From the NCBI GenBank assembly GCA_023229615.1, contig JALNYX010000004.1, positions 1 through 34,873 on the forward strand: a DNA stretch of 34,873 nt, given 5' to 3'. Positions 15,294 to 32,096 of this stretch are shown piece after piece. The position numbers and the translations under genes are program-made. The first letter of the stretch is position 1, and each line of letters begins with the position of its first letter. The stretch is from Candidatus Moraniibacteriota bacterium (GTDB lineage Bacteria; Patescibacteriota; Minisyncoccia; Moranbacterales; UBA9337). The notes beneath the pieces are model-generated. The model worked only from the letters and a program-made list of their open reading frames with translations. It did no database searches and had not been told where the DNA came from.

Positions 15294-16564
15294 ATGATTG
15301 ATAAAATAATGCAAGTTTTTAAGGTGAGGGAATTGCGTAATAAAATCCTGTTTATTGTCGGTCTTTTGGTGGTTTTTCGCTTGGCGGCCAATATTCCAGT
15401 TCCAGGAGTGGATGTGGCGCAATTGAAAAACTTTTTTGACAGCAATCAACTGTTTGGACTTCTTAATATGTTTTCCGGAGGAGGATTGGCGAATATTTCT
15501 ATTGTTCTTTTGGGGGTTGGACCATATATTACTGCTTCGATTATTATGCAACTATTAACGATGATTATCCCTCGATTGGAACAAATTTACAAAGAAGAGG
15601 GAGAAGCAGGACGACAGAAATTCAATATGTGGACTCGCTGGATTACTGTTCCGCTTGCGGCAATGCAAACCTTTGCGATGATTAGTCTTTTGCGCAGTCA
15701 GCAAGTTTTGGGAGAATTATCTCCTTTTAATATGTTTGTGATTATTGTGGTGGCGACGGCCGGGACGATATTTTGATGTGGCTGGGAGAGTTAATCACGG
15801 AAAAAGGAATTGGCAATGGAGTTTCTTTGATAATTTTTGCCGGAATTGTGGCTAGTATTCCCAGCTCTTTTTCTCGCTTAATTGCAACTTTTGATTCAAC
15901 AGATTTTTTCAGTTATCTCATTTTTTTGGCGATTGGACTGGCAACAATTGCTGGTGTGGTTTTGGTTAATGAGGGACAGAGAAATATTCCAGTGTCCTAT
16001 GCCAAGAGAATTCGCGGAAATCAGACGTTGGGCGGGACTTCTACTCATTTGCCACTTCGAGTTAATCAGGCAGGAGTTATTCCAATTATCTTTGCAATTT
16101 CGATTATGCTTTTTCCGGGAGTAGTAGCTAGTTTTTTCGCCAATTCATCAAATGAGATGGTGGCTAATTCCGCTCAATTCGTGAGTTCTCTTTTCCAAAA
16201 CCAAATTTTTTATGGAGCGGCTTATTTTCTGATGGTAGTTTTGTTTACTTATTTTTACACAGCAGTTGTTTTTGATCCATATAAAATATCGGAGAATTTG
16301 CAAAAGCAAGGAGGATATATTCCAGGTATTCGACCAGGAGAATCAACCGCAGTATATTTGAATAAGATTATTAACCGTATTACTCTTTCCGGATCTTTGT
16401 TCTTGGGATTGATTGCCATTCTTCCGTTGGTGGTTCAGGGCGTGACAAAGATTGGAGCGATGACAATTGGAGGTACTAGTATTTTGATTGCAGTTTCTGT
16501 GGTTATCGAGATGATCAAACAAATCGAAAGCCAAATGGTGATGAGGGATTATGAGGGATTTTAA
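15294..16564 (+). CDS. secY: preprotein translocase SecY, interrupted by a 1-nt frameshift at ~15771-15775 (ORFs 15294-15776 and 15773-16564)
   Basis: N-half LGVGPYITASIIMQLL, EEGEAGRQK; C-half WLGELITEKGIGNGVSLIIFAGI, NQAGVIPIIFA, IPGIRPG, GGTSILI. One extra T in ATATTTTGATGTGG restores AGTIFLMWLGE. Confidence 0.95.
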
Positions 16565-20348: not shown

Positions 20349-20969
20349 ATGATTGCAGAAATTATTTCATTTTTAGCGCAGTTTATAATTTGGGGGATTG
20401 ATTATTTGGGTTATTCCGGAGTGGCTTTGATGATGGCGATTGAATCCGCTTGTATTCCGCTTCCATCTGAAATTATTATGCCATTTTCCGGATACTTGGT
20501 GTCAATTGGAGAATTCTCTTTGTGGGGTGTTTCTTTTGCTGGAGCAATTGGGTGCGTAATTGGAAGTGCGGTGGCTTATTGGGTGGGTTATTACGGAGGA
20601 AGACCAGCAGCGGAAAAATATGGAAAATATATTTTGGTTACGCGCCACGATTTGGATATTGCGGATAATTTTTTCAAAAAATATGGAAATACTGCGGTAT
20701 TTATTTCCCGGATGCTTCCGGTGGTACGAACTTTCATTTCACTTCCAGCAGGAATTGCCAAGATGAATTTTCCCAAGTTTATTGCGTACACTTTTGCCGG
20801 ATCGTTGCCATTTTGCTATATTTTGGCGTATATCGGAAAAGAGTTGGGTGATAATTGGGATACGCTCGGAGTGTATTTTCACAAATTTGATGCAATAATA
20901 GGCATATTGATTGTGGTTGGAATTGTTTGGTTTGTACGTCGGCATATAAATATAAAAAATCTCGCGTAA
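20349..20969 (+). CDS. dedA: DedA-family membrane protein
   Basis: ESACIPLPSEIIMPFSG, FISRMLPVVRTFISLPAG. Confidence 0.92.
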   Translation: MIAEIISFLAQFIIWGIDYLGYSGVALMMAIESACIPLPSEIIMPFSGYLVSIGEFSLWGVSFAGAIGCVIGSAVAYWVGYYGGRPAAEKYGKYILVTRHDLDIADNFFKKYGNTAVFISRMLPVVRTFISLPAGIAKMNFPKFIAYTFAGSLPFCYILAYIGKELGDNWDTLGVYFHKFDAIIGILIVVGIVWFVRRHINIKNLA

Positions 20970-20974
20970 ATAAT

Positions 20975-21748
20975 ATGACTACAAAAATAATAGTTGGAAA
21001 TTTGAAGATGAATCTCATAACCCTCTCCGAAAGAGATGGTTATTTGAAATTGTTAAAAAGCGAGATTAAAAAACTGAAAAATGACGGGAGTTGGGAATTG
21101 ATTTTGTGTGTTCCTTTTGTGCATTTGGATTTTTTTTCCAAAAATCTGAAAGGAAAAAATATCTACTTGGGAGTGCAAAATATTTTTTGGGATGAGCGAG
21201 GTTCGTTTACGGGAGAAATTTCTCCGGTTATGGCAAGAGAATGTGGGGCGAAATATTCGATTGTCGGACACAGCGAAAGGCGGAGATATTTCAAGGAAAA
21301 TGATCAGGAAGTGAATAAAAAAATAAAAGTAGCGATTCAAAGTCAAATAACCCCGATTATGTGTATCGGAGAAACTTCTGATGAAAGAAAAGAGGGGCTA
21401 ACCAAGGATGTTATTTCTCGTCAATTATTGGATGGACTTGAAGGAATTTTGCCATTGCAGTCGGAAAAAATAATTATTGCATATGAACCTGTTTGGTCAG
21501 TAGGTTCTGACATTGAACCTGAAAGCAATGAAATAATGGAAGTACGGATACTTGTTCGCAAGCTTTTGACTCAAAAATACGGGGAAGCGGTTGCTGGAAA
21601 AGTGAAAGTTTTATATGGAGGATCGGTGAAATCAAAATTGATAAAAAAGGTTTGTTTTAATCCGCAAATGGATGGAGTGCTTGTTGGAAGAGAGAGTTTG
21701 GTGCCGGTTAATTTGATCGAGATAGTTCAAAGTTTTTCTCAATGTTAA
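20975..21748 (+). CDS. tpiA: triosephosphate isomerase (divergent phosphate-binding loops)
   Basis: GNLKMN, GSFTGEISP, VGHSERR, CIGET, AYEPVW, LYGGSV. Start at ATG 20975. Confidence 0.92.
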   Translation: MTTKIIVGNLKMNLITLSERDGYLKLLKSEIKKLKNDGSWELILCVPFVHLDFFSKNLKGKNIYLGVQNIFWDERGSFTGEISPVMARECGAKYSIVGHSERRRYFKENDQEVNKKIKVAIQSQITPIMCIGETSDERKEGLTKDVISRQLLDGLEGILPLQSEKIIIAYEPVWSVGSDIEPESNEIMEVRILVRKLLTQKYGEAVAGKVKVLYGGSVKSKLIKKVCFNPQMDGVLVGRESLVPVNLIEIVQSFSQC

Positions 21749-21770: not shown

Positions 21771-22643
21771 ATGATTGTTGGAGTAAATGAAATTTTGAGA
21801 AAAGCCAAAGAAGGCGGATATGCTGTCGGAGCTTTTAATGTTGTGAATATGGAAACTGTTCAGGCGATTTTGCAAGCCGCATCAGAAGCTCGTTCTCCTG
21901 TGATACTTCAAGTGACGGAAAAAACAATGGATTATGCAGGAGGAAGGAATATTTTTCAGATTATCAAGAATACAGCTGAATTTTATTATAGTGAAGTTCC
22001 GGTAGGAATTCATTTGGATCATGGAAAAAGTTTTGAGGTTGTTCAGCGGGCGGTAGAAATTGGTTTTGATTCTGTGATGTATGACGGGTCGCGAAGGGAA
22101 TATGAAGACAATTTGGCTATGACAAAAAAAGTTGTGGATTTCTGCCAGAAAAATGCATCAGGGGGAGTGAGCGTTCAGGCTGAGTTGGGGAGTGTTCCAT
22201 ATCTTGGGGAAGTTGATATGAATGATATTGAAGGGGAGAAATATATGACTGATCCGGGACAGGCTGAGGAATTTGTGAGAGAAACCGGAATTTCCGCTTT
22301 GGCAGTGGCAATTGGAAATGCTCATGGATTTGCCAAGGAACGCAAGGAGCCGGATTATGCGCGATTGGAAATGATTAACAAGGTGGTGAATGTTCCTTTG
22401 ATTTTGCACGGAGCTTCTGATTGGGAAAATGGGAAAGTAAAAGAGGTTATTAAGCGAGGAATTTGTTGTTTCAATGTGGATACTGCCACCAGAATGGCGT
22501 TTATCAATAATATTATGCTGGCGATAAAAGATGAGGGTGGAGGTTCGTTTGATATGCGTCGGCTTTTGGGAAATGCCAGGGAGGCGATTAAGGAGGTTGT
22601 GAAAACTAAAATGAAATATTTCGGAAGTGATGGAAAGATATAA
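21771..22643 (+). CDS. fba: class II fructose-bisphosphate aldolase
   Basis: YAVGAFN, HLDHG, SVMYDGS, AELG, AVAIGNAHG, LILHGAS, NVDT. Confidence 0.92.
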   Translation: MIVGVNEILRKAKEGGYAVGAFNVVNMETVQAILQAASEARSPVILQVTEKTMDYAGGRNIFQIIKNTAEFYYSEVPVGIHLDHGKSFEVVQRAVEIGFDSVMYDGSRREYEDNLAMTKKVVDFCQKNASGGVSVQAELGSVPYLGEVDMNDIEGEKYMTDPGQAEEFVRETGISALAVAIGNAHGFAKERKEPDYARLEMINKVVNVPLILHGASDWENGKVKEVIKRGICCFNVDTATRMAFINNIMLAIKDEGGGSFDMRRLLGNAREAIKEVVKTKMKYFGSDGKI

Positions 22644-22658
22644 GTATAATTTTAATAT

Positions 22659-22883
22659 ATGTGTTTGGCATATCCTGGGAAAATTAAAAATGTAAAAGGA
22701 AAGACCGCCGAAGTGGATTTTGGCGGTATTTTAAAAGAGGTTAATATTTCTCTGATTGATGCTAAGAAGGGGGATTATGTCATTGTTCATGCCGGATTTG
22801 CGATTGAGGTTATGAGTGAAAAGGAGGGATTGATTGGTCAAAAAATGTTTAAGTTGGAAAAAAATGATACAGGGATTGATTGA
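22659..22883 (+). CDS. hypC: hydrogenase assembly chaperone HypC
   Basis: MCLAYPG, AEVDFGG, GDYVIVHAGFA. Confidence 0.95.
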   Translation: MCLAYPGKIKNVKGKTAEVDFGGILKEVNISLIDAKKGDYVIVHAGFAIEVMSEKEGLIGQKMFKLEKNDTGID

Positions 22884-23901
22884 AGAAATTCAAAAAATAG
22901 CAAGAGAAATCGGCAGAAAGGTGAATTTGATGGAGGTTTGTGGGACGCATACGCAGGCGATTAGCCGAAGTGGTATCCGCGGAATTTTGCCGAAAAATAT
23001 CAACTTGATTACCGGACCGGGATGTCCGGTTTGTGTTACGGCGCAAAAGGATATTGATGCGATCGTGAGTTTGGCGCTGGCGGGAATTCCAGTGGCGACT
23101 TATGGCGATATGTTGAGAGTGCCGGGAAGGTTTGGAAGTTTGAATGAGGCGCGCGAAAAAGGGGCCGCGGTTTTTGATGTTTATTCGACCGAAGACGCTT
23201 TGAAATTGCAAGAAAAACATCAGGATTTGGTTTTTTTTGGACTAGGATTTGACACAACGGCGCCGATGACAGCGTGGGCGATCAAAAAAGGATTAACAAC
23301 ATATTCTACACACAAAACTTTTCTTCCGGCGATGAAAGCTTTACTCGAGATGGGAGAAATAAAAATAGATGGATTTATTGATCCCGGGCACGTAAGCGCG
23401 ATAATCGGAAGTGAACCGTATGAAGTTCTCGACACGGCGCAGGTGATAACCGGATTTGAGGTGCAAGATATTTTGAAAGGAATTTTGATGTTACTGAGTC
23501 AAATAAAAGATGAGAGAAAAGATGTCGAAAATCAATATTCCAGAGTAGTGAAAAAGAATGGAAATAAAAAAGCGCGCGATTTGATTTTTGAGGTTTTTGA
23601 AATTGGGGATGGGGATTGGCGCGGGTTTGGAATAATTCCCGGATCGGGATTGGAAATAAAAAATGAATTTTCAAAATATGACGCGAAGAAAAAATACAAA
23701 AATATCCTGGATAAAATTGATTTTGAAAAATCAAAAGACCCCGTTGGTTGTGCGTGCGGAGAGGTGATCCGGGGCTTGAAAACGCCAGAAAAATGCCCGA
23801 TGTTCGGAAAAAGATGCACCCCGGAAAATCCGGTCGGACCGTGTATGGTATCAATCGAAGGCGCTTGTAATAATTTTTTCAAAGAAAATAAAAAATTATG
23901 A
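22864..23901 (+). CDS. hypD: hydrogenase maturation protein HypD
   Basis: MEVCGTH, GPGCPVCV, GFDTT, PGHVS, C-terminal Fe-S Cys cluster CACGE...CPMFG.RCTP..PVGPCMVSIEGAC. Start at ATG 22864. Confidence 0.96.
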   Translation: MIQGLIEEIQKIAREIGRKVNLMEVCGTHTQAISRSGIRGILPKNINLITGPGCPVCVTAQKDIDAIVSLALAGIPVATYGDMLRVPGRFGSLNEAREKGAAVFDVYSTEDALKLQEKHQDLVFFGLGFDTTAPMTAWAIKKGLTTYSTHKTFLPAMKALLEMGEIKIDGFIDPGHVSAIIGSEPYEVLDTAQVITGFEVQDILKGILMLLSQIKDERKDVENQYSRVVKKNGNKKARDLIFEVFEIGDGDWRGFGIIPGSGLEIKNEFSKYDAKKKYKNILDKIDFEKSKDPVGCACGEVIRGLKTPEKCPMFGKRCTPENPVGPCMVSIEGACNNFFKENKKL

Positions 23902-24929
23902 AAAATGAAAATATTACTTTGGATGAAGGCGGGGGTGGGTATAAATCAGGGGAGTTGATTTCCGGGATTCGGAAGATTTTGGGTGTGGCAGGAAAAAATA
24001 AAAAGTGGAAAAATTGCGAGGATGATGGCGCGGTGTTTTCGCTGGGCAGGGAAAAATTGGTATTTACGACGGATGCATATATCGTTGATCCGATATTTTT
24101 TCCAGGCGGAGATATTGGGAAAATCGCGATGAGCGGTACAATTAATGATCTTTCGGTGATGGGCGCGCGTCCGATTGGAATTTCGCTTAGCATCGTGATG
24201 GAAGAAGGTTTTCCCAAAAGCGATCTGGAAAAAATAATCCGATCGATTGCGACGGTTTCCAAAGAATCGGGCGTGCCGGTAGTAACGGGCGATACGAAAG
24301 TGACGGAGAAGGGGAAAATAGACAAGATTGAAATAACCACGGCCGGAGTGGGTTTGGCGGAAAATGTTATTTCAAATAACGGGGTAAAACCCGGGGATTT
24401 CATCATAGCCAGTGGGGATTTGGGCGAGCATGCGGTGGCACTTCTGGCGAAAAGGTTTAATTATAAAACGAGAATAAAAAGCGACAGCAAACCGCTTGAC
24501 AAGGAAATTGAAAAAGTCGGAAAGTGGCTGAGTGCCTGTAAGGACCCAACACGCGGAGGATTGGCGGCGATATTGAATGAAATGGCGGAAAAATCCCGCG
24601 TGAAAATTATTCTTGACGAGGAAACTTTGCCATACAAAAAAGAGGTGGTGGCGGTGACGGAACTTTTGGGCTTGGATATTTTTTCACTGGCAAGTGAAGG
24701 AAGATTCGTCGCTAGCGTTTTGCCGGAAAATGTGGAGAAAGTTTTAAAAATATTGAAAAAGTTCAATCCGGAAGCGAAAATTATCGGAAGGGCAGAAAAT
24801 GGGAAGAAAAAGGGAGATAAAAGGGAAGAAGAAAAAAAGGGAAAACCTGGCGTTTATTTGAAAACTAATCTCGGAAGTCTGCGTCCGATCGAAATGCCGA
24901 AAGGGAAGTTAGTGCCGAGAATTTGCTAG
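23898..24929 (+). CDS. hypE: carbamoyl dehydratase HypE
   Basis: FTTDAYIVDPIFFPGGDIG, GTINDL, VTGDTKV, DPTRGG, ASEG, C-terminal PRIC. Confidence 0.96.
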   Translation: MKNENITLDEGGGGYKSGELISGIRKILGVAGKNKKWKNCEDDGAVFSLGREKLVFTTDAYIVDPIFFPGGDIGKIAMSGTINDLSVMGARPIGISLSIVMEEGFPKSDLEKIIRSIATVSKESGVPVVTGDTKVTEKGKIDKIEITTAGVGLAENVISNNGVKPGDFIIASGDLGEHAVALLAKRFNYKTRIKSDSKPLDKEIEKVGKWLSACKDPTRGGLAAILNEMAEKSRVKIILDEETLPYKKEVVAVTELLGLDIFSLASEGRFVASVLPENVEKVLKILKKFNPEAKIIGRAENGKKKGDKREEEKKGKPGVYLKTNLGSLRPIEMPKGKLVPRIC

Positions 24930-25002
24930 ATATTATTTTTAGTGCTAGTATTTTTTTAGTTGTTTCTGTGGGCTAAAAAATACAAAATAGAGGAGGTATC
25001 AA

Positions 25003-25275
25003 ATGTATTTTAATTGGGTTGATTTCGTAGCTCTTTGGTTAGGTAGGGGTATTATTTATGCGTCTTTGGCAGTTTTTATATATTTATCTCTGTATTGGGC
25101 GTATATTGATTTTTTTCGAAAAAGACCATATTGTCCGAAATGTGGTTCGCGAAAATTGGCGACGGTCTGTGGAAATTCTTCAGGAGGTTATAGGTGTGCG
25201 GATTGTAGTACTCATTATTGGTGGATAAGTGGATTGTGGTGGAGAGGAAAAAGCACACTTCAAAAACCCAAGTAA
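25003..25275 (+). CDS. small membrane-anchored zinc-ribbon hypothetical protein
   Basis: RBS GAGGAGG; hydrophobic N-terminal helix then CPKC-x14-CADC. Confidence 0.6.
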   Translation: MYFNWVDFVALWLGRGIIYASLAVFIYLSLYWAYIDFFRKRPYCPKCGSRKLATVCGNSSGGYRCADCSTHYWWISGLWWRGKSTLQKPK

Positions 25276-26528
25276 TAAACAATTTGCCCAAAACTTATTC
25301 CGGCGTCGCCTCGGGGGATGGTCGGTGTTTCCGAAATGGAGATGCCGGCTTTTTTATTTTGTTTGGAGAAATATTGCGAGATTATTTTGTTATTGGAAAT
25401 TCCGCCAGAGATGACGATGGGTTGTGATTTGGCGGCGGAATTTTTTTCTTGATTCATAATTCTTGATTCATAATTCCTGATTATTTCTTCCAATCCTTCG
25501 GCGATGTAAAGTTGCGCGGTGGCGGCGAGGCGTTTTTTGTCTTTGTTTATGTTTTTAATCAGGTATTCAAATAAAAAAGTTGTATTTAAAATTGAATTGT
25601 TTTTTATAATATTGATTTTCGGTTTTAGATCCGTGTATGGCGCGGAAGAATTAATTTCCAATAGATGTGTTGCCTGATGTTTTGATTTTCTTTCATTTTT
25701 GCAAAAACCCAAAAGCAATGACACGGCGTCCAAAATCCTGCCCGTGCCGGAAGTTTCTATACAGTTGAAATTTTGCTCAAGTTGGTTATATAAAAGTTCA
25801 AACTGATTTCGCGAGTAATATTTTTTAACGAAGTGAAATATGAAATCTTTTTTGTTTTTAAATTTATAAATTTTGTCATTGTTTGAAAATTTAAAATTGA
25901 AAATTGAAAATTTATCCAAAATTGATATCAATATTCTCGCCGGTTCCCGAATCGCCAATTCCCCTCCAATCATCGTTTGATTTTCGAGATGCCCGATTCT
26001 TTCAATCCGCATTTTTTGTTTGGAAATTGGAAATTTGGAATTGGAAATTTGAAATATTTCTCCGCCCCAAATTTTCCCGTCTGTTCCGAGTCCGGTTCCA
26101 TCTAAAACGATACCATAAAAATAATTTTTAATTTGGTTATTTGAATTTGAAAATTGTTTGGAAATTGGAAATTGGAAATTGGAAATTCTCATATTTTTTC
26201 CCAGCTGGGAAAAAATATGAGCTATGTGGTGCTGGACTTGGATGTGTTTCGCTTTGTATTTTTTGGAAAGTTCGATTCCCAGTCGCGTGGTTTTGAAATC
26301 CGGATGCAGGTCAGTTAGGATGATATCCGGTTGTATTTTTTCATTTTTAAGATATTTATTTAATTCTGTTTTGTATTTATTAAAATTCACTTCTTCCAGG
26401 AGGTCGCTGAAGTCTTTGGAGGAATATATTTTCCCATTTTGAAAAATTGAAAAATTCCCGGCGGATTCGGCACCGAGGGCGAGGATGGTTTTTTCCGATT
26501 GGATGTTCGGAGCGCTGAATGTTTGCAT
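25260..26528 (-). CDS. hypF: truncated carbamoyltransferase HypF (Kae1-like C-terminal domains only) with in-frame repeat insertions
   Basis: ILALGAE, DLHPDF, VQHHIAH, LDGTGLGTDGKIWGGE, GGELAIREP, TSGTGRILDAVS, SGG, PRGDAGISFGQ. No acylphosphatase, zinc-finger or YrdC segments. Confidence 0.88.
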   Translation of the reverse strand: MQTFSAPNIQSEKTILALGAESAGNFSIFQNGKIYSSKDFSDLLEEVNFNKYKTELNKYLKNEKIQPDIILTDLHPDFKTTRLGIELSKKYKAKHIQVQHHIAHIFSQLGKNMRISNFQFPISKQFSNSNNQIKNYFYGIVLDGTGLGTDGKIWGGEIFQISNSKFPISKQKMRIERIGHLENQTMIGGELAIREPARILISILDKFSIFNFKFSNNDKIYKFKNKKDFIFHFVKKYYSRNQFELLYNQLEQNFNCIETSGTGRILDAVSLLLGFCKNERKSKHQATHLLEINSSAPYTDLKPKINIIKNNSILNTTFLFEYLIKNINKDKKRLAATAQLYIAEGLEEIIRNYESRIMNQEKNSAAKSQPIVISGGISNNKIISQYFSKQNKKAGISISETPTIPRGDAGISFGQIVYYLGF

Positions 26529-26593
26529 AAGTTTGCGGAGGTCAAATCTCCATATTTTGGATATTTTAAGTATATCAGTATTTTTTCCAATTT

Positions 26594-26715
26594 AAAAAGC
26601 CCTCAATTCAAGACGGCTCATGAATCCCGTTTAAGATAATATCGGAAAAAAATAAATTTTTTCCCTGGTAATCCAGGTGGGTTTCAACGTTTTTACCGCC
26701 TATCCTGAAGGCTTT
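26594..26715 (-). ncRNA. candidate structured ncRNA (~120 nt; 6S-like rod or cis-regulatory leader of hypF)
   Basis: On the minus strand: closing stem AAAGCCUUCA/UGAGGGCUUU, stem AGGCGGU/GCCGUCU, stem UGAAACCC/GGGAUUCA, hairpins CCUGG-AUUA-CCAGG and GGAAAAAA/UUUUUUCC. Starts at the predicted TSS of an adjacent promoter and ends in a U run. Confidence 0.55.
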
Positions 26716-26721
26716 GCTTCT

Positions 26722-26750
26722 AGTATACCGCAATTTTTGAAATTTGTCAT
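26722..26750 (-). promoter_or_regulatory. sigma70-type promoter for the ncRNA candidate / hypF
   Basis: Minus strand ATGACA-17 nt-TATACT; predicted +1 near 26715. Confidence 0.6.
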
Positions 26751-26756
26751 AATTAT

Positions 26757-26843
26757 TAGATTTACGCATTTTTATTATTCTGGTATGTTTTCCAAAAAAT
26801 AATAATTTTTTGGAAACCGATATTTATTTAAATGCGCAGGTTA
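26757..26843. repeat. palindromic MITE/REP-like element, short copy
   Basis: TAGATTTACGCATTT...GTTTTCCAAAAAAT-AATA-ATTTTTTGGAAACCGA...AAATGCGCAGGTTA; aligns by eye with 30935-31078. Confidence 0.65.
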
Positions 26844-26907
26844 TAAATAATTTACTTGGTGGAGTTTTTGAGGTAGAATAGGAAAGTAATTCTTCAAAAA
26901 AATAAAA

Positions 26908-27642
26908 ATGAATAAATCAAAGTTGGTATTTTTAGATACAGAGACGACGGGAAACGACTCGGAAGCGCGTCTTTGCCAAGTAGCATATAAATTTGATGGA
27001 AAAGAGGTTGAAGGTTTTTTCAAGCCCCCGATTCCAATTTCCATTGAAGCGATGTCTATTTCTCATATTACCAATAAGATGGTAGCAGATAAAGAATCTT
27101 TTTTCGATTCAAAAATGAAAAAAGATTTGGAAAGGATTTTTTCTGAGGGAAATATTCTAGTGGCTCACAATGCGGATTTTGATTCAAATATACTCAAAAA
27201 TGATGGGGTAATTATTGGAAAGAAAATTGATACTGTAAAAATTGCCCAGTATTTGGATGAGAAAGGGGATATTCCGCGATACAGCTTGCAATATTTGCGA
27301 TATTATTTCGATCTTGATCTTGATCCAAAAAATGCTCCGGCGCACAATGCGTTGGGAGATATCCGCGTTTTGGAAAAACTTTTTGATTACCTTTTTGAAA
27401 AGATGGAGGAAAATCTCATTAGTGAAGAGGAGGTTTTGGAAAAAATGCTGGAGATTTCCGCTTTGCCGGTTTTGATGAAAAAATTTGGGTTCGGAAAATA
27501 TAAGGGGGAAAAAGTGGAAGATGTTTATCAGAAAGATCCAGGATATTTGAAGTGGCTTTGGGAGCAAAAGAAAAAAGCCCAACAGCAAGGAGAGGAAAAT
27601 GATGAAAATTGGATTTATACTTTGGGATATTATTTAAAGTAG
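26908..27642 (+). CDS. DEDDh 3'-5' exonuclease, ExoX-like, with C-terminal FGKYKG domain
   Basis: FLDTETTG (ExoI), VAHNADFD (ExoII), AHNALGD (ExoIII), FGFGKYKGEK....DPGYLKWL. Confidence 0.88.
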   Translation: MNKSKLVFLDTETTGNDSEARLCQVAYKFDGKEVEGFFKPPIPISIEAMSISHITNKMVADKESFFDSKMKKDLERIFSEGNILVAHNADFDSNILKNDGVIIGKKIDTVKIAQYLDEKGDIPRYSLQYLRYYFDLDLDPKNAPAHNALGDIRVLEKLFDYLFEKMEENLISEEEVLEKMLEISALPVLMKKFGFGKYKGEKVEDVYQKDPGYLKWLWEQKKKAQQQGEENDENWIYTLGYYLK

Positions 27643-27679
27643 GTTTTATTGGGGGGGTATTATTTTGCAGTTAAAAAGC

Positions 27680-27708
27680 TTGACAAAAGGGTGGGTTTTG
27701 TTTATGAT
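27680..27708 (+). promoter_or_regulatory. sigma70-type promoter for the VPLPA-CTERM gene
   Basis: TTGACA-17 nt-TATGAT. Confidence 0.7.
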
Positions 27709-27794
27709 TGCTGGCAGTAATGAGTCGCGCCTAGAGGAGGCGCTTATAGTTGTTTCAAAAAAATAGGAGGCAGATGCCTCCAAGGAGCGAGAAA

Positions 27795-28358
27795 ATGAAA
27801 AGAGTGATTGTTGGTTTGGGTTGTTTACTTGCAGTTGTTTTTTTTGCTGGCCAAGCTGTGGCTAGTACGGTAATTGACTTCAATGATGGCAGTCTTGAAC
27901 TGCCAATGGTCGTTGATGGCTATCTGATCCTGTCTCCGTTGGATGCACCGGAAGACAGGATTGTATATGACCCTGCCACGGGAGAGGGATACCTTGAGGC
28001 TGGCTTCTGGGTTGGGGTTGAGCGTCTCGATGGAAACGCTTTCGTTCTCGGAGGATTTGATGGCAGATCCCCGTCCGGGACAATAGCCGTGTGGACGGAG
28101 GAACATCAAGTAGCCTTTGCCGTTGGAACGGATTCGTTCCAACCAGCAGTGGCTCCCACGGAAGGATGGGACCCAAATGAGTCTTTTTTCTCCCTTTCCT
28201 TTTGGGCGGGGGATGTTGACAATTTGGAATTGAGGGAGAAGATCTTGATTCCAAAGCCGCCAATTGACAGGACGTCAGCAGTTCCGCTTCCTGGAGCCGT
28301 GTGGCTTCTTGGGGCAGGAATCTCAGTGTTGTTGGCGACTAATCGTCGTCGGAAATAG
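27795..28358 (+). CDS. secreted protein with VPLPA-CTERM (PEP-CTERM-like) sorting signal
   Basis: RBS AAGGAG; signal peptide MKRVIVGLGCLLAVVFFAGQAVA; C-terminus AVPLPGAVWLLGAGISVLLATNRRRK. Confidence 0.85.
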   Translation: MKRVIVGLGCLLAVVFFAGQAVASTVIDFNDGSLELPMVVDGYLILSPLDAPEDRIVYDPATGEGYLEAGFWVGVERLDGNAFVLGGFDGRSPSGTIAVWTEEHQVAFAVGTDSFQPAVAPTEGWDPNESFFSLSFWAGDVDNLELREKILIPKPPIDRTSAVPLPGAVWLLGAGISVLLATNRRRK

Positions 28359-28373
28359 ACTGGGAATGTTCAG

Positions 28374-28427
28374 AGCGAGCGTTCTTTTGATGGTAATTTT
28401 TACCAAAGAAAGGACCTCGCTTTTTTT
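28374..28427 (+). terminator. probable intrinsic terminator
   Basis: AGCGAG...TGGTAA-TTT-TTACCA...CTCGCT followed by a T run. Confidence 0.55.
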
Positions 28428-28548
28428 ATTTTTTCAAATGTAAGATTTAGGTTTTATTTTTTCATTTTTTGTGTTATATTTATTTTAGTTTGATGAATAA
28501 GAAATCCATCTTTATTTTTGATGTTTAAAATGAGAAAAGTAAACTTGT

Positions 28549-29322
28549 ATGCAGAAACAAAAAATTGCTATTGTTAGTTTGACTTCTTGTGAAGGTTGTC
28601 AGTTTGCGCTTTTGGATTTGGGACAGAGGTTTTTGGATTTGATGAACCAGGTGGAAATGGTGGATTTCCGTCTTTTGGAGGATGAAGAAGATGCGGGAGG
28701 AAAATTGGATATCGGAATTGTGGAGGGAAATCCAACTACCAAAGAAAATATTGAAACGCTCAAGAAGCTTCGCAAACGGAGTAAACTTTTGGTAGTACTT
28801 GGAAACTGCGCGGCAATGGGAGGAGTTCCGGAAATCAAAAATTATCAACAACAGAAAAATACAATCAAACACGTGTATAAATATATTCAAGGAATTGAAA
28901 ATCCGGAAATTAGAGAGGTGGATAATTTCGTGAAAGTTGATTTTGTTTTTCCCGGATGCCCGATTAATGGTGAGGAATTTGTAAAATATTTTCCAGAATT
29001 ATTGAAGGCTTGCTTGCCGGAAGGAGCGGGTAAAATTCCAGTTATTCCCGATCAGCCGGTTTGCGTGGAATGTAAGAAAAATGGAAACAAATGTTTGTTG
29101 CTTGAGAAAAAACCTTGTTTTGGTCCGATGATTCAGGGTGGGTGCAATGCCGTTTGTCCGAGTTCAAGAATGATGTGCCAAGGTTGTCGCGGACTTCGTC
29201 CAACTGGAAACGTGAAAGCAATGCGAGCAACACTCAAAAATTTTATGACTGATGAAGAATTTGAAAATACAACGGAGATTTTCGGACTCAGAGATGATAT
29301 TGAAGATAGGGGAAGGAAATAA
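28549..29322 (+). CDS. [NiFe]-hydrogenase small subunit, group 3 (3b delta-like)
   Basis: TSCEGC, VEG, LGNCAAMGG, PGCP, distal CVEC..CLL..PCFGP..GCNAVCP..CQGCRG; no Tat signal. Confidence 0.88.
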   Translation: MQKQKIAIVSLTSCEGCQFALLDLGQRFLDLMNQVEMVDFRLLEDEEDAGGKLDIGIVEGNPTTKENIETLKKLRKRSKLLVVLGNCAAMGGVPEIKNYQQQKNTIKHVYKYIQGIENPEIREVDNFVKVDFVFPGCPINGEEFVKYFPELLKACLPEGAGKIPVIPDQPVCVECKKNGNKCLLLEKKPCFGPMIQGGCNAVCPSSRMMCQGCRGLRPTGNVKAMRATLKNFMTDEEFENTTEIFGLRDDIEDRGRK

Positions 29323-29354
29323 GACAAATCAGGCACATAAGACTTATTGGACAT
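29319..29354 (+). repeat. degenerate 9-mer tandem repeat between the hydrogenase subunit genes
   Basis: ataagacaa atcaggcac ataagactt attggacat; same family as 10512-10538. Confidence 0.55.
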
Positions 29355-29364
29355 ATAAAAAATT

Positions 29365-30627
29365 ATGCAAATAAAACTGAATCATATAAATAAAATTGAG
29401 GGACACGCCGGGTTTATGGCGAGTGTTCTTAATGGAGATGTGAAGTCGGCAAAGATTGAAGTAAAAGAGGGGATTCGCTTGATTGAAGGAATTTTGATTG
29501 GACGGCATTATGCCGATATGCCGGTGGTGGCGCAAAGAATTTGTGGGATATGCCCAGTAGTGCATAATCTCACTTCAATCAAATCTATTGAGAACGCTAT
29601 GGGGGTGAAAGTTTCACAGGAAACAATCAATTTGAGAAAGGCTTTGGAATGGGGGCAAATTATTCACTCCCATTCGCTCCACCTTTTCTTTTTGTCGTTG
29701 GCTGATTTTTTGGATATTGATAATGATTTGAAATTGGTGGAAAAGTATCCCGAGGAAACTCAAAAGGCGATTGCGCTTCGAGAATATGGGATGGCGATTG
29801 TGAAAATAATCGGCGGGCGCGTGGTACATCCGCTTACCAATGAAGTTGGAGGTTTCAAAAAAGTTCCTCGATTGGAAGAGATTCAAACTTTAATAAAACA
29901 AGGAGAGGCTACGCTTTTGACAGCTTTTGAAGTAGCGGAATTTTTCAAAGGAATAAAATTGCCAAAATTCGAAAGAGAAACTGAATATGTTTGCTTGGAC
30001 GCGCGTGGTGAGTATGCGATTTATGACGGAGATTTGGTTTCCAATCGCGGACTCAATGTTCCAGTTTTGGAATTTGAAAAGAATTTTCATGAAGTTCAAC
30101 GTCCAAGGGAAATTATCAAAAGAGTGGAGTCGGACGGAAAAACCAGTTATATGGTCGGCGCAATTGCGAGAATAAATAATCATCACAAAAAACTTCATTC
30201 CAGAGCCACACAATATCTTGATTCGCTCGGATTTTCTTTGCCGGATTACAACCCATTTCACAATGTTTTGTATCAAATGGTGGAGGTTATCCATGGAATT
30301 GAAGAGTCGTTGCGGATTTTGCACATTTTAGCTAACAGTAATTTGGAAAATGCTATCACGAAAGAGTATCAGGTGCGAGAGGGGTTTGGAGTTGCCGCTG
30401 TGGAAGCGCCGCGCGGAACACTTTATTACCACGTTGATATTGATAGTAAAGGTTATATTAAAGATGTAAATATCATATCGCCGACAGCTCAATTTTTGAG
30501 CCATCTGGAAGACGATATCAAGAAATATTTGCCGGAAATTTTAAATATTTCAGATAAGGATAAAGAAAAAAAAATGCGCGCTTTTATACGGGCATATGAC
30601 CCGTGTATAAGTTGCGCAGTACACTAA
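29365..30627 (+). CDS. [NiFe]-hydrogenase large subunit, group 3 (3b alpha-like), no C-terminal extension
   Basis: KIEGH, L1 RICGICPVVH, HSHSLHLFFL, GGRVVHP, MVGAIAR, EAPRGTLYYH, L2 RAYDPCISCAVH then stop. Confidence 0.92.
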   Translation: MQIKLNHINKIEGHAGFMASVLNGDVKSAKIEVKEGIRLIEGILIGRHYADMPVVAQRICGICPVVHNLTSIKSIENAMGVKVSQETINLRKALEWGQIIHSHSLHLFFLSLADFLDIDNDLKLVEKYPEETQKAIALREYGMAIVKIIGGRVVHPLTNEVGGFKKVPRLEEIQTLIKQGEATLLTAFEVAEFFKGIKLPKFERETEYVCLDARGEYAIYDGDLVSNRGLNVPVLEFEKNFHEVQRPREIIKRVESDGKTSYMVGAIARINNHHKKLHSRATQYLDSLGFSLPDYNPFHNVLYQMVEVIHGIEESLRILHILANSNLENAITKEYQVREGFGVAAVEAPRGTLYYHVDIDSKGYIKDVNIISPTAQFLSHLEDDIKKYLPEILNISDKDKEKKMRAFIRAYDPCISCAVH

Positions 30628-30631
30628 ATTT

Positions 30632-30907
30632 ATGCATGATTTTTTGCTTGCTAAGGAGATAGTTGATGAGGTTTTGAAAATTGTCGGGGAAAAAAAATTG
30701 AAAAAAGTTTCTCGAGTTGATGTCGAGATTGGTCAGATTGCGATGGCGCACGACGGACACGATGAGCATATTGAAGATATTTCGATTGAAAATTTGAAGT
30801 TTGGATTGGAAGGAATTTCGAGAAATACCATTTTGAAGGATGCGGAATTTGGTATAAAAAAAATTGAAGGCGAACATTGGAAAATTGTTTTAATTGAAGG
30901 GGAATAG
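30632..30907 (+). CDS. hypA: HypA-like nickel metallochaperone lacking the zinc-binding domain
   Basis: MHDFLLAKEIV, KVSRVDVEIG, ENLKFGLE, terminal KIVLIEGE; 4 nt downstream of the large subunit; contains no Cys. Confidence 0.75.
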   Translation: MHDFLLAKEIVDEVLKIVGEKKLKKVSRVDVEIGQIAMAHDGHDEHIEDISIENLKFGLEGISRNTILKDAEFGIKKIEGEHWKIVLIEGE

Positions 30908-31088: not shown

Positions 31089-32096
31089 ATGTTTGGAAAA
31101 AAGAAAGTTAAAATTGCAATTAATGGGTTTGGGAGAATTGGGCGGCCGTCGCTTAAGATTGCTTTGGAAAAAGGAATCGAAGTTGTCGCAATCAATGATT
31201 TGACTGATATTGAAACTGTCGCGCATCTGCTCAAATATGATTCATCATATGGAGTGTATGCAAAAAATGTGGAAGTGGACAAGGAAAAAAGCGAGCTTGT
31301 TGTTGATGGAAAAAGAATTAAATATTTTTCTGAGATGGATCCGAAAAATCTTCCCTGGGAAAAGTTGCAGGTGGACGTGGTTTTGGAGTGTACAGGAGCG
31401 TTTCTCACGAAAGAAAAGGTGCAAGCGCATCTCGATGCGGGAGCGAAGAAAGTTTTGATGTCCGCTCCTCCCAAGGATGATGTCCCGGTATATCTTTTGG
31501 GTGTGAATGAAAAAGAATATCAAGGCGAAGCGGTGGTTTCCAATGGATCTTGCACGACCAATTGTTTGGCGCCGATGATAAAGGTGTTGGACGAACTTTG
31601 CGGAATTGAAAAAGGGTTTATGACCACCACTCATTCATATACCAATGATCAAAGAGTTCTTGATCTTCCGCACAAAGATTTGCGACGAGCCAGAGCGGCT
31701 GCGCTTAATATCATTCCGACTTCTACCGGAGCGGCAAAAACAGTAGGAAAGGTAATCAAACATTTGGAGGGAAAAATTGATGGAATTTCACTCCGCGTTC
31801 CGACGCCAGTTGTTTCGATTGTTGATTTTGTTTGTACAGTAAAAAATCCGAAATCAGCTGAAGAAATTAACGTTGTTTTCCGCGAGGCATCCAAGGGGGA
31901 ATTGGCGGGAATATTGGATGCGACTGACAAAGAATTGGTGTCGATGGATTACAAAATGAATCCGATGAGTGCAATTGTGGATCTTCCGCTCACGATGTCG
32001 CAGGATAATATGGTGAAAATTGTAGGATGGTATGATAATGAATGGGGGTATTCAAACCGTTTAGTGGAAATGGCAGAATATATCTCGAAATTGTAA
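31089..32096 (+). CDS. gap: type I glyceraldehyde-3-phosphate dehydrogenase
   Basis: AINGFGRIGR, SNGSCTTNCLAP, HSYTNDQ, DLRRARAAALNIIPTSTGAAK, RVPT, WYDNEWGYS. Confidence 0.98.
   Translation: MFGKKKVKIAINGFGRIGRPSLKIALEKGIEVVAINDLTDIETVAHLLKYDSSYGVYAKNVEVDKEKSELVVDGKRIKYFSEMDPKNLPWEKLQVDVVLECTGAFLTKEKVQAHLDAGAKKVLMSAPPKDDVPVYLLGVNEKEYQGEAVVSNGSCTTNCLAPMIKVLDELCGIEKGFMTTTHSYTNDQRVLDLPHKDLRRARAAALNIIPTSTGAAKTVGKVIKHLEGKIDGISLRVPTPVVSIVDFVCTVKNPKSAEEINVVFREASKGELAGILDATDKELVSMDYKMNPMSAIVDLPLTMSQDNMVKIVGWYDNEWGYSNRLVEMAEYISKL

Follow-up and report, generated by a model that had tools for sequence, protein, structure and literature searches.

Our analysis revealed that a gene cluster at positions 22,659 to 30,907 of a 34,873-nucleotide stretch of DNA (hereafter, the window: contig JALNYX010000004.1 of assembly GCA_023229615.1), from an ultra-small groundwater bacterium of the Candidatus Moranbacteria within the Candidate Phyla Radiation (CPR), encodes three intact [NiFe]-hydrogenase maturation proteins, HypC, HypD and HypE, alongside a HypF reduced to its Kae1-like domain, a HypA reduced to its nickel-binding domain and a large subunit that ends without a cleavable tail. 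We read this set, at a probability of about 0.7, as a streamlined maturation system that works and is shared across the lineage, serving a group-3b-like [NiFe]-hydrogenase of two subunits. This reading draws on which genes are present, on their domain architecture and retained motifs, and on conservation, purifying selection and the co-variation of the reductions; the individual pathway steps are predictions. Gene identities were assigned from open reading frame (ORF) calls and from Pfam and NCBIfam profile scans with curated cut-offs. The source contig is contig 47 of a 911-kb (0.91-Mb), 63-contig genome with an estimated completeness of 86%, which is weak ground for claims of absence, and the same absences were therefore checked in 40 relatives, from the same genus up to the same order, with genome sizes of 0.6-1.4 Mb and, for most, 90-100% completeness (96-100% for many). 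Counts out of 41 combine these relatives with the source genome, and those out of 22 refer to the family.

The three intact proteins all pass curated cut-offs and keep their key motifs. HypC (22659-22883, plus strand; 74 aa) matches PF01455 at 81.3 bits and TIGR00074 at 62.8 bits against a cut-off of 48, begins with MCLAYPG, including the N-terminal Cys2, and has orthologues in the relatives' clusters; we take it to be the Fe(CN)2CO chaperone. HypD (22834-23901, plus strand) was called as a 355-aa ORF, reaches 400.4 bits on TIGR00075 (cut-off 192.8) and carries the GPGCPVC and C-terminal Fe-S cysteine motifs. Because HypD in the relatives is 343-346 aa long, its true start is likely the ATG at 22864, which would give a protein of about 345 aa. 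HypE (23898-24929, plus strand; 343 aa) scores 337.2 bits on TIGR02124 against 251.6 and ends in PRIC, whose Cys is presumably the carbamoylated residue.

The hypF gene (25260-26528, minus strand; 422 aa) encodes only the Kae1-like part, recognized by PF17788 and PF22521. Its product covers positions 383-739 of the 741 in TIGR00143, at 216.9 bits and below the cut-off of 466.1, and lacks three of the four canonical domains (acylphosphatase, Zn-finger and YrdC-like), retaining the Kae1-like transfer domain. It aligns to residues 397-754 of Thermococcus kodakarensis HypF (4g9i) and 400-743 of Caldanaerobacter HypF (3vth), with the motifs DLHP, QHHxAH, DGTGxGxDGxxWGGE, GRxLDA, SGG and PRGDxGxSxGQ kept, and the residues H75, H100, H101, H104, D143-G146, W154-E157, R264, D267, G375, G376 and D408 are invariant among 17 orthologues, all of which keep the metal (His-His-Asp) and nucleotide motifs. 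In an AlphaFold2 (AF2) model with a predicted local distance difference test score (pLDDT) of 83, the top nine fold matches in the PDB are all HypF (template modeling score, TMq, 0.72-0.76), followed by TsaD and Kae1 structures at TMq 0.40-0.48. With only the Kae1-like domain, this HypF would perform only the last, transfer step, so that an activated carbamoyl donor would be needed. A low-complexity insert in the protein (residues 111-134 and 165-171; window 26030-26200), with repeated FPISKQ, varies among orthologues and is modeled with low confidence.

Short HypF is by no means peculiar to this genome. It is found in 22 of the 40 relatives, always as frames of 362-478 aa, and within the length range searched, public data held 624 clusters at 90% identity (E<=1e-10). 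The best 120 of these carry only the two Kae1 Pfam domains, and those among them that are named to a taxon belong mostly to the Moranbacteria or to the Parcubacteria/Patescibacteria group, with some Kuenenbacteria and Terrybacteria. Among the best 150 representatives at 50% identity, 76 cover Kae1 in one stretch (28 short, 13 intermediate and 35 full-length), and 72 of them, together with the query, formed the 73 rows of a FastTree phylogeny, some of whose short rows could be fragments. The window HypF falls in a supported clade of 10 short forms, and the label "short" requires at least five changes on well-supported branches. On this tree, Kae1-only HypF is polyphyletic and appears to have arisen several times.

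The HypA-like gene (30632-30907, plus strand; 91 aa) has undergone a comparable reduction. The protein passes the Pfam gathering score of PF01155 (32.3 bits vs 28.9), matching profile positions 1-70 of 112, and falls below the cut-off of TIGR00100 (28.4 vs 88.1 bits). It has no Cys, begins with MHD and bears a His/acid loop, AHDGHDEHIED (H40, H46, E48 and D49); the nickel-domain fold and the Met-His-acid motif are thus present, and the Zn domain with its two CxxC pairs is absent. An alignment with CxxC-bearing HypAs of other CPR (alignment A4) places the difference precisely: the 35-40-residue zinc insert (CxxC...CxxC) is cleanly excised, and the Moranbacteria protein carries an added loop, AHDG..EH, relative to other CPR HypAs. 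In an alignment of 19 sequences (A1), M1, H2, D3, F4, A7, K8, G34, H40, H46, F57, G58, F73, K77 and W83 are invariant. A single-sequence search of PDB sequences returned no HypA match, and the A1 profile found T. kodakarensis HypA as its best match at an E-value of only 0.041. The AF2 model (pLDDT 80, with loop 38-48 below 50) was more informative, all nine PDB fold matches at E<=1e-3 being HypA (best 3a43_B, TMq 0.81, root-mean-square deviation 1.9 A; 6g81, TMq 0.73). Short HypA forms 612 clusters at 90% identity, with source names that are often "hypothetical" or "Zn finger protein HypA/HybF". It occurs in 72 species-representative loci, 67 of 71 complete copies being Cys-free, and the taxon-labeled loci are almost all from Moranbacteria/Moraniibacteriota or from the broader Parcubacteria/Patescibacteria group.

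The enzyme that this machinery would serve is encoded alongside. The small subunit (28549-29322, plus strand; 257 aa) matches PF01058 at 85.2 bits, and its best NCBIfam matches are sulfhydrogenase delta subunits (158 and 148.7 bits, below the cut-offs); its 4 + 8 Cys suffice for three Fe-S clusters. The large subunit (29365-30627, plus strand; 420 aa) matches PF00374, contains RICGICPVVH and ends in DPCISCAVH followed by the stop at His420, so that all four metal-binding Cys are present and no cleavable tail follows. Its best matches among PDB sequences, at E about 1e-57, are the Pyrococcus furiosus sulfhydrogenase I alpha subunit and T. kodakarensis HyhL. The 428-residue HyhL runs four residues further, its residue 424 being the one aligned to residue 420 here. 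According to the available part of one source, a C-terminal extension occurs in "almost all" large subunits (PMC6769069). Here, all 19 of the 3b-type orthologues end in DPCISC(A/S)VH and a stop, and the four Cys, EGH and PRG positions are invariant in 15 orthologues. PF00374 is matched in 27 of the 40 relatives, and 24 of these large subunits were judged to be 3b-type. About ten relatives carry a second class of ORF (frames of 520-542 aa) whose match to the large-subunit Pfam profile is confined to the first 67 positions (for example, G003:C4:7984-8184, G026:C8:9292-9492 and G039:C17:83026-83226); the source genome has none.

A preliminary description of the window, made from sequence alone, had named these reduced and intact components, and each is borne out by the profiles and motifs above; its inventory of the span was accurate for the genes it listed, and it passed over three unrelated ORFs inside the span and the minus-strand orientation of hypF. 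It had also reported that the window holds no hypB, endopeptidase or diaphorase gene, which the Pfam and NCBIfam scans confirmed, and had allowed that the missing genes might lie elsewhere. Our search of the whole genome (86% complete) found no full-length hypF or hypA, hypB or protease. Specifically, none of the 41 genomes has a HypB over the TIGR00073 cut-off. The weak HypB matches in the source genome (16 and 12.7 bits) include one that, when checked, proved to be an Obg GTPase, and a Mrp/MinD-type HypB was rejected, the sole PF10609 match being a Soj/ParA-like protein. The source genome has no HycI-family protease, and none exceeds the cut-off in any of the 41, the sole hit being a sub-cut-off match in relative G024 at about 21.6-21.8 bits. 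No second HypA was found in the source genome, nor a second HypF piece at E<=1, in a search that does recover standalone acylphosphatase-like ORFs in other CPR genomes. The gamma-subunit Fe-S domain PF10418 is missing from the source genome and from all 22 genomes of the family, and its three matches in the order (3/41) are frames of 592-610 aa on other contigs. For the beta-subunit domain PF17179, the only match in the source genome was a 96-aa PorD-like ferredoxin ORF. A search for a His-rich nickel-storage protein returned only spurious short ORFs. TsaD was likewise not found over the cut-off in the source genome, where the top match is a MurA-like enzyme, and TsaC/Sua5 (PF01300) is absent from all four genomes of the genus, which may lack the universal t6A tRNA-modification pathway.

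The reductions co-vary within the phylum. Of 400 evenly sampled Patescibacteria genomes, 15 have a full-length HypF over the cut-off, and Kae1-only forms occur in a few lineages. Among 20 comparison genomes, HypB, HycI and CxxC-bearing HypA are confined to genome G322 and family f46. HypF is full-length and HypA bears CxxC in these genomes, with the exception of G059 of f46, which has a match to the Kae1 part only, no HypA hit and neither HypB nor HycI; HypB is present in G322, G087 and G157, and HycI in G322, G135 and G157. The large subunit of G322, encoded beside HypA, has a tail (...THFLEVEFI), and the f46 loci fetched include no large-subunit end. Families f65 (which includes a closed, one-contig genome) and f39 have full-length HypF, no HypB or HycI and a HypA of 80-86 aa that is Cys-free, apart from one Cys in G150. 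In five of the six genomes of these two families, the neighbor of HypA is a tailless large subunit; none falls within the locus fetched for G150. Family f89 has full-length HypF, with no HypB, HycI or other parts found, and f80 has Kae1-only HypF, with no HypB, HycI or HypA hit; no large-subunit end was seen in either. In the 72 short-HypA loci, a tailless large-subunit end lies within 2.5 kb in 68 and a tailed one in none.

Within the order, relative G024 shows the reverse state of the same correlation. It encodes (L067:7272-9599) a different [NiFe] hydrogenase, whose small subunit is 155 aa long and whose large subunit (455 aa, 30% identity) has a 7-aa tail (...ASHFLRVKWV); a 131-aa neighbor is the HycI-like protein noted above. 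A reverse transcriptase lies upstream, and the short HypF and hypCDE are as in other relatives. Hence, the sole tailed relative in the order is also the sole one with a HycI-like neighbor. Together, the patterns in the phylum and in G024 show that the losses of the tail, the protease, HypB and the HypA zinc domain go together, and that HypF lost its N-terminal domains separately, in a further step.

The arrangement is also conserved across the lineage. Among 20 loci, taken from the 27 relatives with a PF00374 match, the order class II fructose-bisphosphate aldolase (FBA), hypC, hypD, hypE, hypF, small subunit, large subunit, hypA and glyceraldehyde-3-phosphate dehydrogenase (GAPDH) recurs. The hypF gene is present in 17 of these loci, short hypA in 19 and a 3b-type large subunit in 19; GAPDH follows hypA in 10, and FBA and triosephosphate isomerase (TIM) also flank the cluster in five. 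Pairwise Nei-Gojobori estimates of the ratio of nonsynonymous to synonymous substitution rates (dN/dS) for hypF were 0.32 vs G002 (dS 0.26), 0.15 vs G001 and 0.11 vs G003. For hypA, dN/dS was 0.11 vs G001; the proportion of nonsynonymous differences (pN) was 0.009 vs G002, and that of synonymous differences (pS) was 0.76 vs G003. Against G002, hypD and hypE gave 0.12 and 0.09; the large subunit gave 0.04 vs G002 and 0.05 vs both G001 and G003, and the small subunit 0.05-0.06 within the genus. Beyond the genus, pS is saturated at 0.68-0.91, with pN of 0.16-0.32. The reduced genes are under weaker constraint than the structural genes, yet they evolve far from neutrally.

These estimates bear on the idea that the cluster consists of decaying remnants, in which the truncations would mark steps of pseudogenization on the way to losing the hydrogenase together with its helpers. 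Such decay could account for the absence of the hydrogenase from 13 of the 40 relatives, the loss of hypD, hypE and hypF in two, the mobile elements inserted between genes and the faster evolution of hypF and hypA relative to the structural genes. However, the same reduced lengths and intact motifs recur across an order in which synonymous sites are saturated, the window genes have no internal stops, and the short forms amount to hundreds of clusters in public data (624 for HypF and 612 for HypA, as above), which makes decay very unlikely. The kept catalytic motifs and the purifying selection argue instead for a lineage-wide streamlined system. The preliminary description had arrived at the same preference for streamlining over decay, and had named neutral evolution of the reduced genes and full-length counterparts elsewhere as what would overturn it; the dN/dS values and the genome-wide absences support its view, as does the co-occurrence that it proposed to examine, that the pathway works being a deduction from sequence.

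How such a system might operate can be proposed from knowledge of the protein families, on which every biochemical step below is modeled, as are the identity of the carbamoyl donor, what the His loop does and which partner takes the electrons. Kae1-only HypF would carbamoylate the C-terminal PRIC of HypE, using a pre-activated donor such as carbamoyl-adenylate. HypE would then dehydrate the adduct to a thiocyanate, and CN would be passed to iron held on HypC-HypD, after which HypC would deliver Fe(CN)2CO to the large subunit. Nickel would be inserted by the nickel-domain-only HypA, with its MHD terminus and newly acquired, conserved His/acid loop, without the HypB nucleoside triphosphatase. 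Made at its "mature" length, the large subunit would pair directly with the small subunit; since it ends at His420, a protease checkpoint would not be needed. The enzyme, which has no beta and gamma diaphorase subunits and whose genes lie among those of glycolysis, would most likely dispose of fermentative reducing equivalents as H2 through some carrier.

Several points weigh against this reading. First, assembly errors exist in the source genome: a frameshift at a T-run (near 15770-15776) splits SecY (window 15294-16564) into ORFs of 160 aa and 263 aa, and the conserved LMWLGE..GIGNG motif is read downstream in the next frame. The assembly has probably misread a homopolymer in this essential gene. 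Given that the assembly is fragmented and incomplete, full-length hypF, hypA, hypB and a protease could be imagined on unassembled parts of the genome. This would have to hold as well for G001 of the same genus (6 contigs, 96% complete) and the 39 other relatives, which show the same absences, and for the closed genome G091, which has neither HypB nor HycI and whose HypA is Zn-free; moreover, each of the short genes has a start and a stop of its own and forms a complete ORF. We therefore regard an assembly artefact as extremely improbable.

Second, neither a YrdC domain nor carbamoyl-phosphate enzymes were found that could furnish the carbamoyl donor. The YrdC/Sua5 domain PF01300 is absent from the source genome and from the whole genus (0 of 4 genomes); of the 22 relatives with short HypF, 11 lack it as well. 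A check for carbamoyl-phosphate sources, suggested in the preliminary description, found the carbamoyl-phosphate-binding transferases (PF02729) in none of the 22 genomes of the family and in three of the 41 of the order, and no carbamate kinase in the source genome. Third, G031 (L069; 99% complete) and G034 (L070; 94% complete) carry a conserved small subunit, a tailless large subunit with intact motifs and zinc-free HypA between FBA and GAPDH, with a HypC-family ORF also confirmed at the cluster in G031, and HypD, HypE and HypF were not detected anywhere in either genome. In these two, divergence of the structural genes does not exceed that seen in relatives with the hyp genes; between the large subunits of G034 and G023, for instance, pN is 0.116 at pS 0.80. 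Either the Hyp proteins are not strictly needed or the structural genes persist unmatured.

One way to accommodate these observations is that the system is incomplete on its own, with carbamoyl activation and nickel loading supplied by non-homologous proteins of the bacterium itself or by small molecules from a host or the community. The missing donor enzymes, the HypC-and-HypA-only clusters of G031 and G034 and genomes of only 0.6-1.4 Mb would all fit. However, when the ORFs of the 20 loci were clustered, 68 unassigned or recurrent ORFs scanned with Pfam and the hypF neighbors compared by phmmer, no conserved extra gene that could replace HypB or YrdC recurred beyond one or two genera; nor did the genome yield a His-rich ORF or a Mrp-type ATPase. 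Nor do we know of any precedent for a cell importing a labile carbamoyl donor. We accordingly consider dependence on such outside or non-homologous supply improbable. A bolder reading, which we also hold to be rather unlikely, is that the donor of the CN ligands, an activated carbamoyl group or another one-carbon-nitrogen compound, is made by no known route, YrdC, carbamoyl-phosphate enzymes and t6A machinery all being missing; HypF would use a new substrate, or the cell would import the donor from a host. At its extreme, G031 and G034 might mature or use the large subunit with only HypC and zinc-free HypA.

A different resolution would be that the large subunit is not catalytic and serves instead, for example, in sensing H2 or as a redox protein that holds a different cofactor, roles for which canonical maturation would be unneeded. 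Its persistence without HypD, HypE and HypF in two genomes and the lack of a diaphorase partner point in that direction, and sensory hydrogenases are tailless. Yet its closest relatives are catalytic sulfhydrogenase alpha subunits, its four Cys, EGH and PRG are invariant, a three-cluster small subunit stands alongside, hypCDEF accompany it in most genomes and no signaling partner occurs in the cluster. A non-catalytic role thus seems highly doubtful. Finally, published work on other bacteria gives reason for caution toward the streamlined pathway: as far as the accessible parts of these sources go, the single-domain HypF1 of Cupriavidus necator is called "unusually truncated" (PMC5350229) and was inactive in E. 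coli (PMC5350229, PMC9100943), and the zinc-site residues of Helicobacter pylori HypA matter for hydrogenase activity (PMC5557546).

The cluster sits in a core chromosomal region. The ribosomal-protein operon, SecY, TIM (20927-21748, plus strand; Pfam) and FBA (21771-22643, plus strand; Pfam) lie upstream, and type I GAPDH (31089-32096, plus strand; TIGR01534, 412.8 bits) directly follows hypA. Three ORFs inside the span appear to have other affiliations. A DnaQ/ExoX-like exonuclease (26908-27642, plus strand) and a PEP-CTERM-like secreted protein (27750-28358, plus strand), both identified by Pfam/NCBIfam matches, are unrelated insertions of this genus only, the exonuclease being restricted to three same-genus loci (L053, L054 and L055) and the PEP-CTERM-like match to L053. 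Between hypE and hypF, a 90-aa ORF (25003-25275, plus strand) with a membrane helix and a CxxC...CxxC Zn ribbon matches no family at cut-off. It recurs in G002 (97% identity; L054:5491-5763) and G010 (E 2e-8; L060:6960-7292), that is, in 3 of 18 clusters including the window. We considered it as a remnant of the HypF finger and rejected this, given the absence of any HypF-finger family match and its presence in so few clusters; it probably stands outside the maturation system.

Elsewhere in the relatives, the content of the gaps between cluster genes varies and includes PD-(D/E)XK nucleases, IS200 transposases, a 23S intervening-sequence (IVS) protein, a reverse transcriptase, pilin-like genes and singletons. 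In G039, an inserted gene for a desulfoferrodoxin (superoxide reductase) separates hypA from the gene of the large subunit (L071:4743-5117). In G029 and G039, an [FeFe]-hydrogenase-like protein (2Fe-2S, NuoG-type, Fe_hyd_lg_C) and a NuoF-like flavoprotein adjoin hypC (L068:8949-11789, with matching ORFs in L071). An Amidohydro_3 protein with a urease-alpha-like N-terminus (267-542 aa, mostly about 523) follows GAPDH in six relatives (L054, L055, L057, L058, L070 and L071), a place occupied by a MarR regulator in the window. The datasets listed as carrying this DNA are groundwater metagenomes, with no RNA dataset among them. Several public records of the lineage are labeled "uncultured Bdellovibrionales", while close relatives are labeled Moranbacteria; this is probably an automatic mislabel.

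The Moranbacteria cluster presents a conserved natural set of three intact Hyp proteins, one HypF domain and one HypA domain, against a canon of six Hyp proteins plus a protease (PMC12134894). The available text of that 2025 review treats all six Hyp proteins as necessary, the protease as a key step for nickel specificity and HypA as having a zinc domain, and does not contain the word "truncated". In the literature we searched, mostly without subscription journals, we found no published description of zinc-free HypA or of reduced Hyp sets in CPR. If the system works, it would define which maturation parts are dispensable, and it would offer a compact gene set for heterologous hydrogenase production. 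It would also make two questions bench-testable with small proteins: where the carbamoyl group and cyanide originate when HypF cannot activate its substrate, and what keeps nickel insertion faithful when HypB, a zinc switch and a proteolytic checkpoint are all missing. More broadly, these results bear on H2 handling by CPR bacteria, which make up a large part of groundwater life.

Each reduced component can be set beside a known counterpart. Kae1-only HypF has a precedent and is not new in itself. C. necator H16 (Ralstonia eutropha) HypF1, whose gene belongs to a hyp operon, likewise has a single Kae1-like carbamoyl-transfer domain and a mass of about 40 kDa (PMC9100943, PMC5350229), a likeness drawn from its published architecture. 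In the part of the literature available, HypF1 is described as having "only one of three domains" and as one that "likely requires carbamoyl adenylate" (PMC9100943). The difference is that C. necator also has a full-length HypF2 (PMC9100943, PMC5350229, as far as their accessible text goes), whereas the short form is the sole HypF here, in the genome and in the lineage. Similarly, this HypA shares with canonical HypA/HybF (T. kodakarensis 3A43 and 5YXY; H. pylori 6G81 and 2KDX) the nickel-domain fold, the Met-His-acid motif and a gene position beside the hydrogenase, and differs in the deleted Zn domain, the extra loop with H40 and H46 and the absent HypB partner.

Group 3b hydrogenases are well known in CPR, as the available parts of two studies attest (PMC10811913, PMC10945355); in the part available, the former likens Berkelbacteria and Moranbacteria gene arrangements to that of P. 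furiosus and models a four-subunit Berkelbacteria complex, and the word "maturation" is absent from it. The enzyme described here resembles the group 3b hydrogenases of P. furiosus (sulfhydrogenase I) and T. kodakarensis (Hyh), its closest sequence relatives, in its active-site and large-subunit motifs and its three-cluster small subunit. It differs in having neither the NAD(P)-linked beta/gamma diaphorase that completes the heterotetramer, which is missing from the genome and the family, nor the protease-cleaved tail, and in scoring far below the NCBIfam equivalog cut-offs. Tailless large subunits have parallels elsewhere. The regulatory hydrogenase HoxC and the group 4 enzymes of the Ech and CooH types likewise do without a C-terminal extension and without a protease; these belong to groups 2 and 4, and to our knowledge their hosts keep HypB and zinc-HypA, whereas the tailless large subunit here is group-3b-like. 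Finally, relative to E. coli-type maturation, which uses HypA-F plus a specific endopeptidase, the Moranbacteria system lacks HypB and the endopeptidase, three of four HypF domains and one of two HypA domains, but its HypC, HypD and HypE are bona fide equivalogs, and the order of steps is presumably the same.

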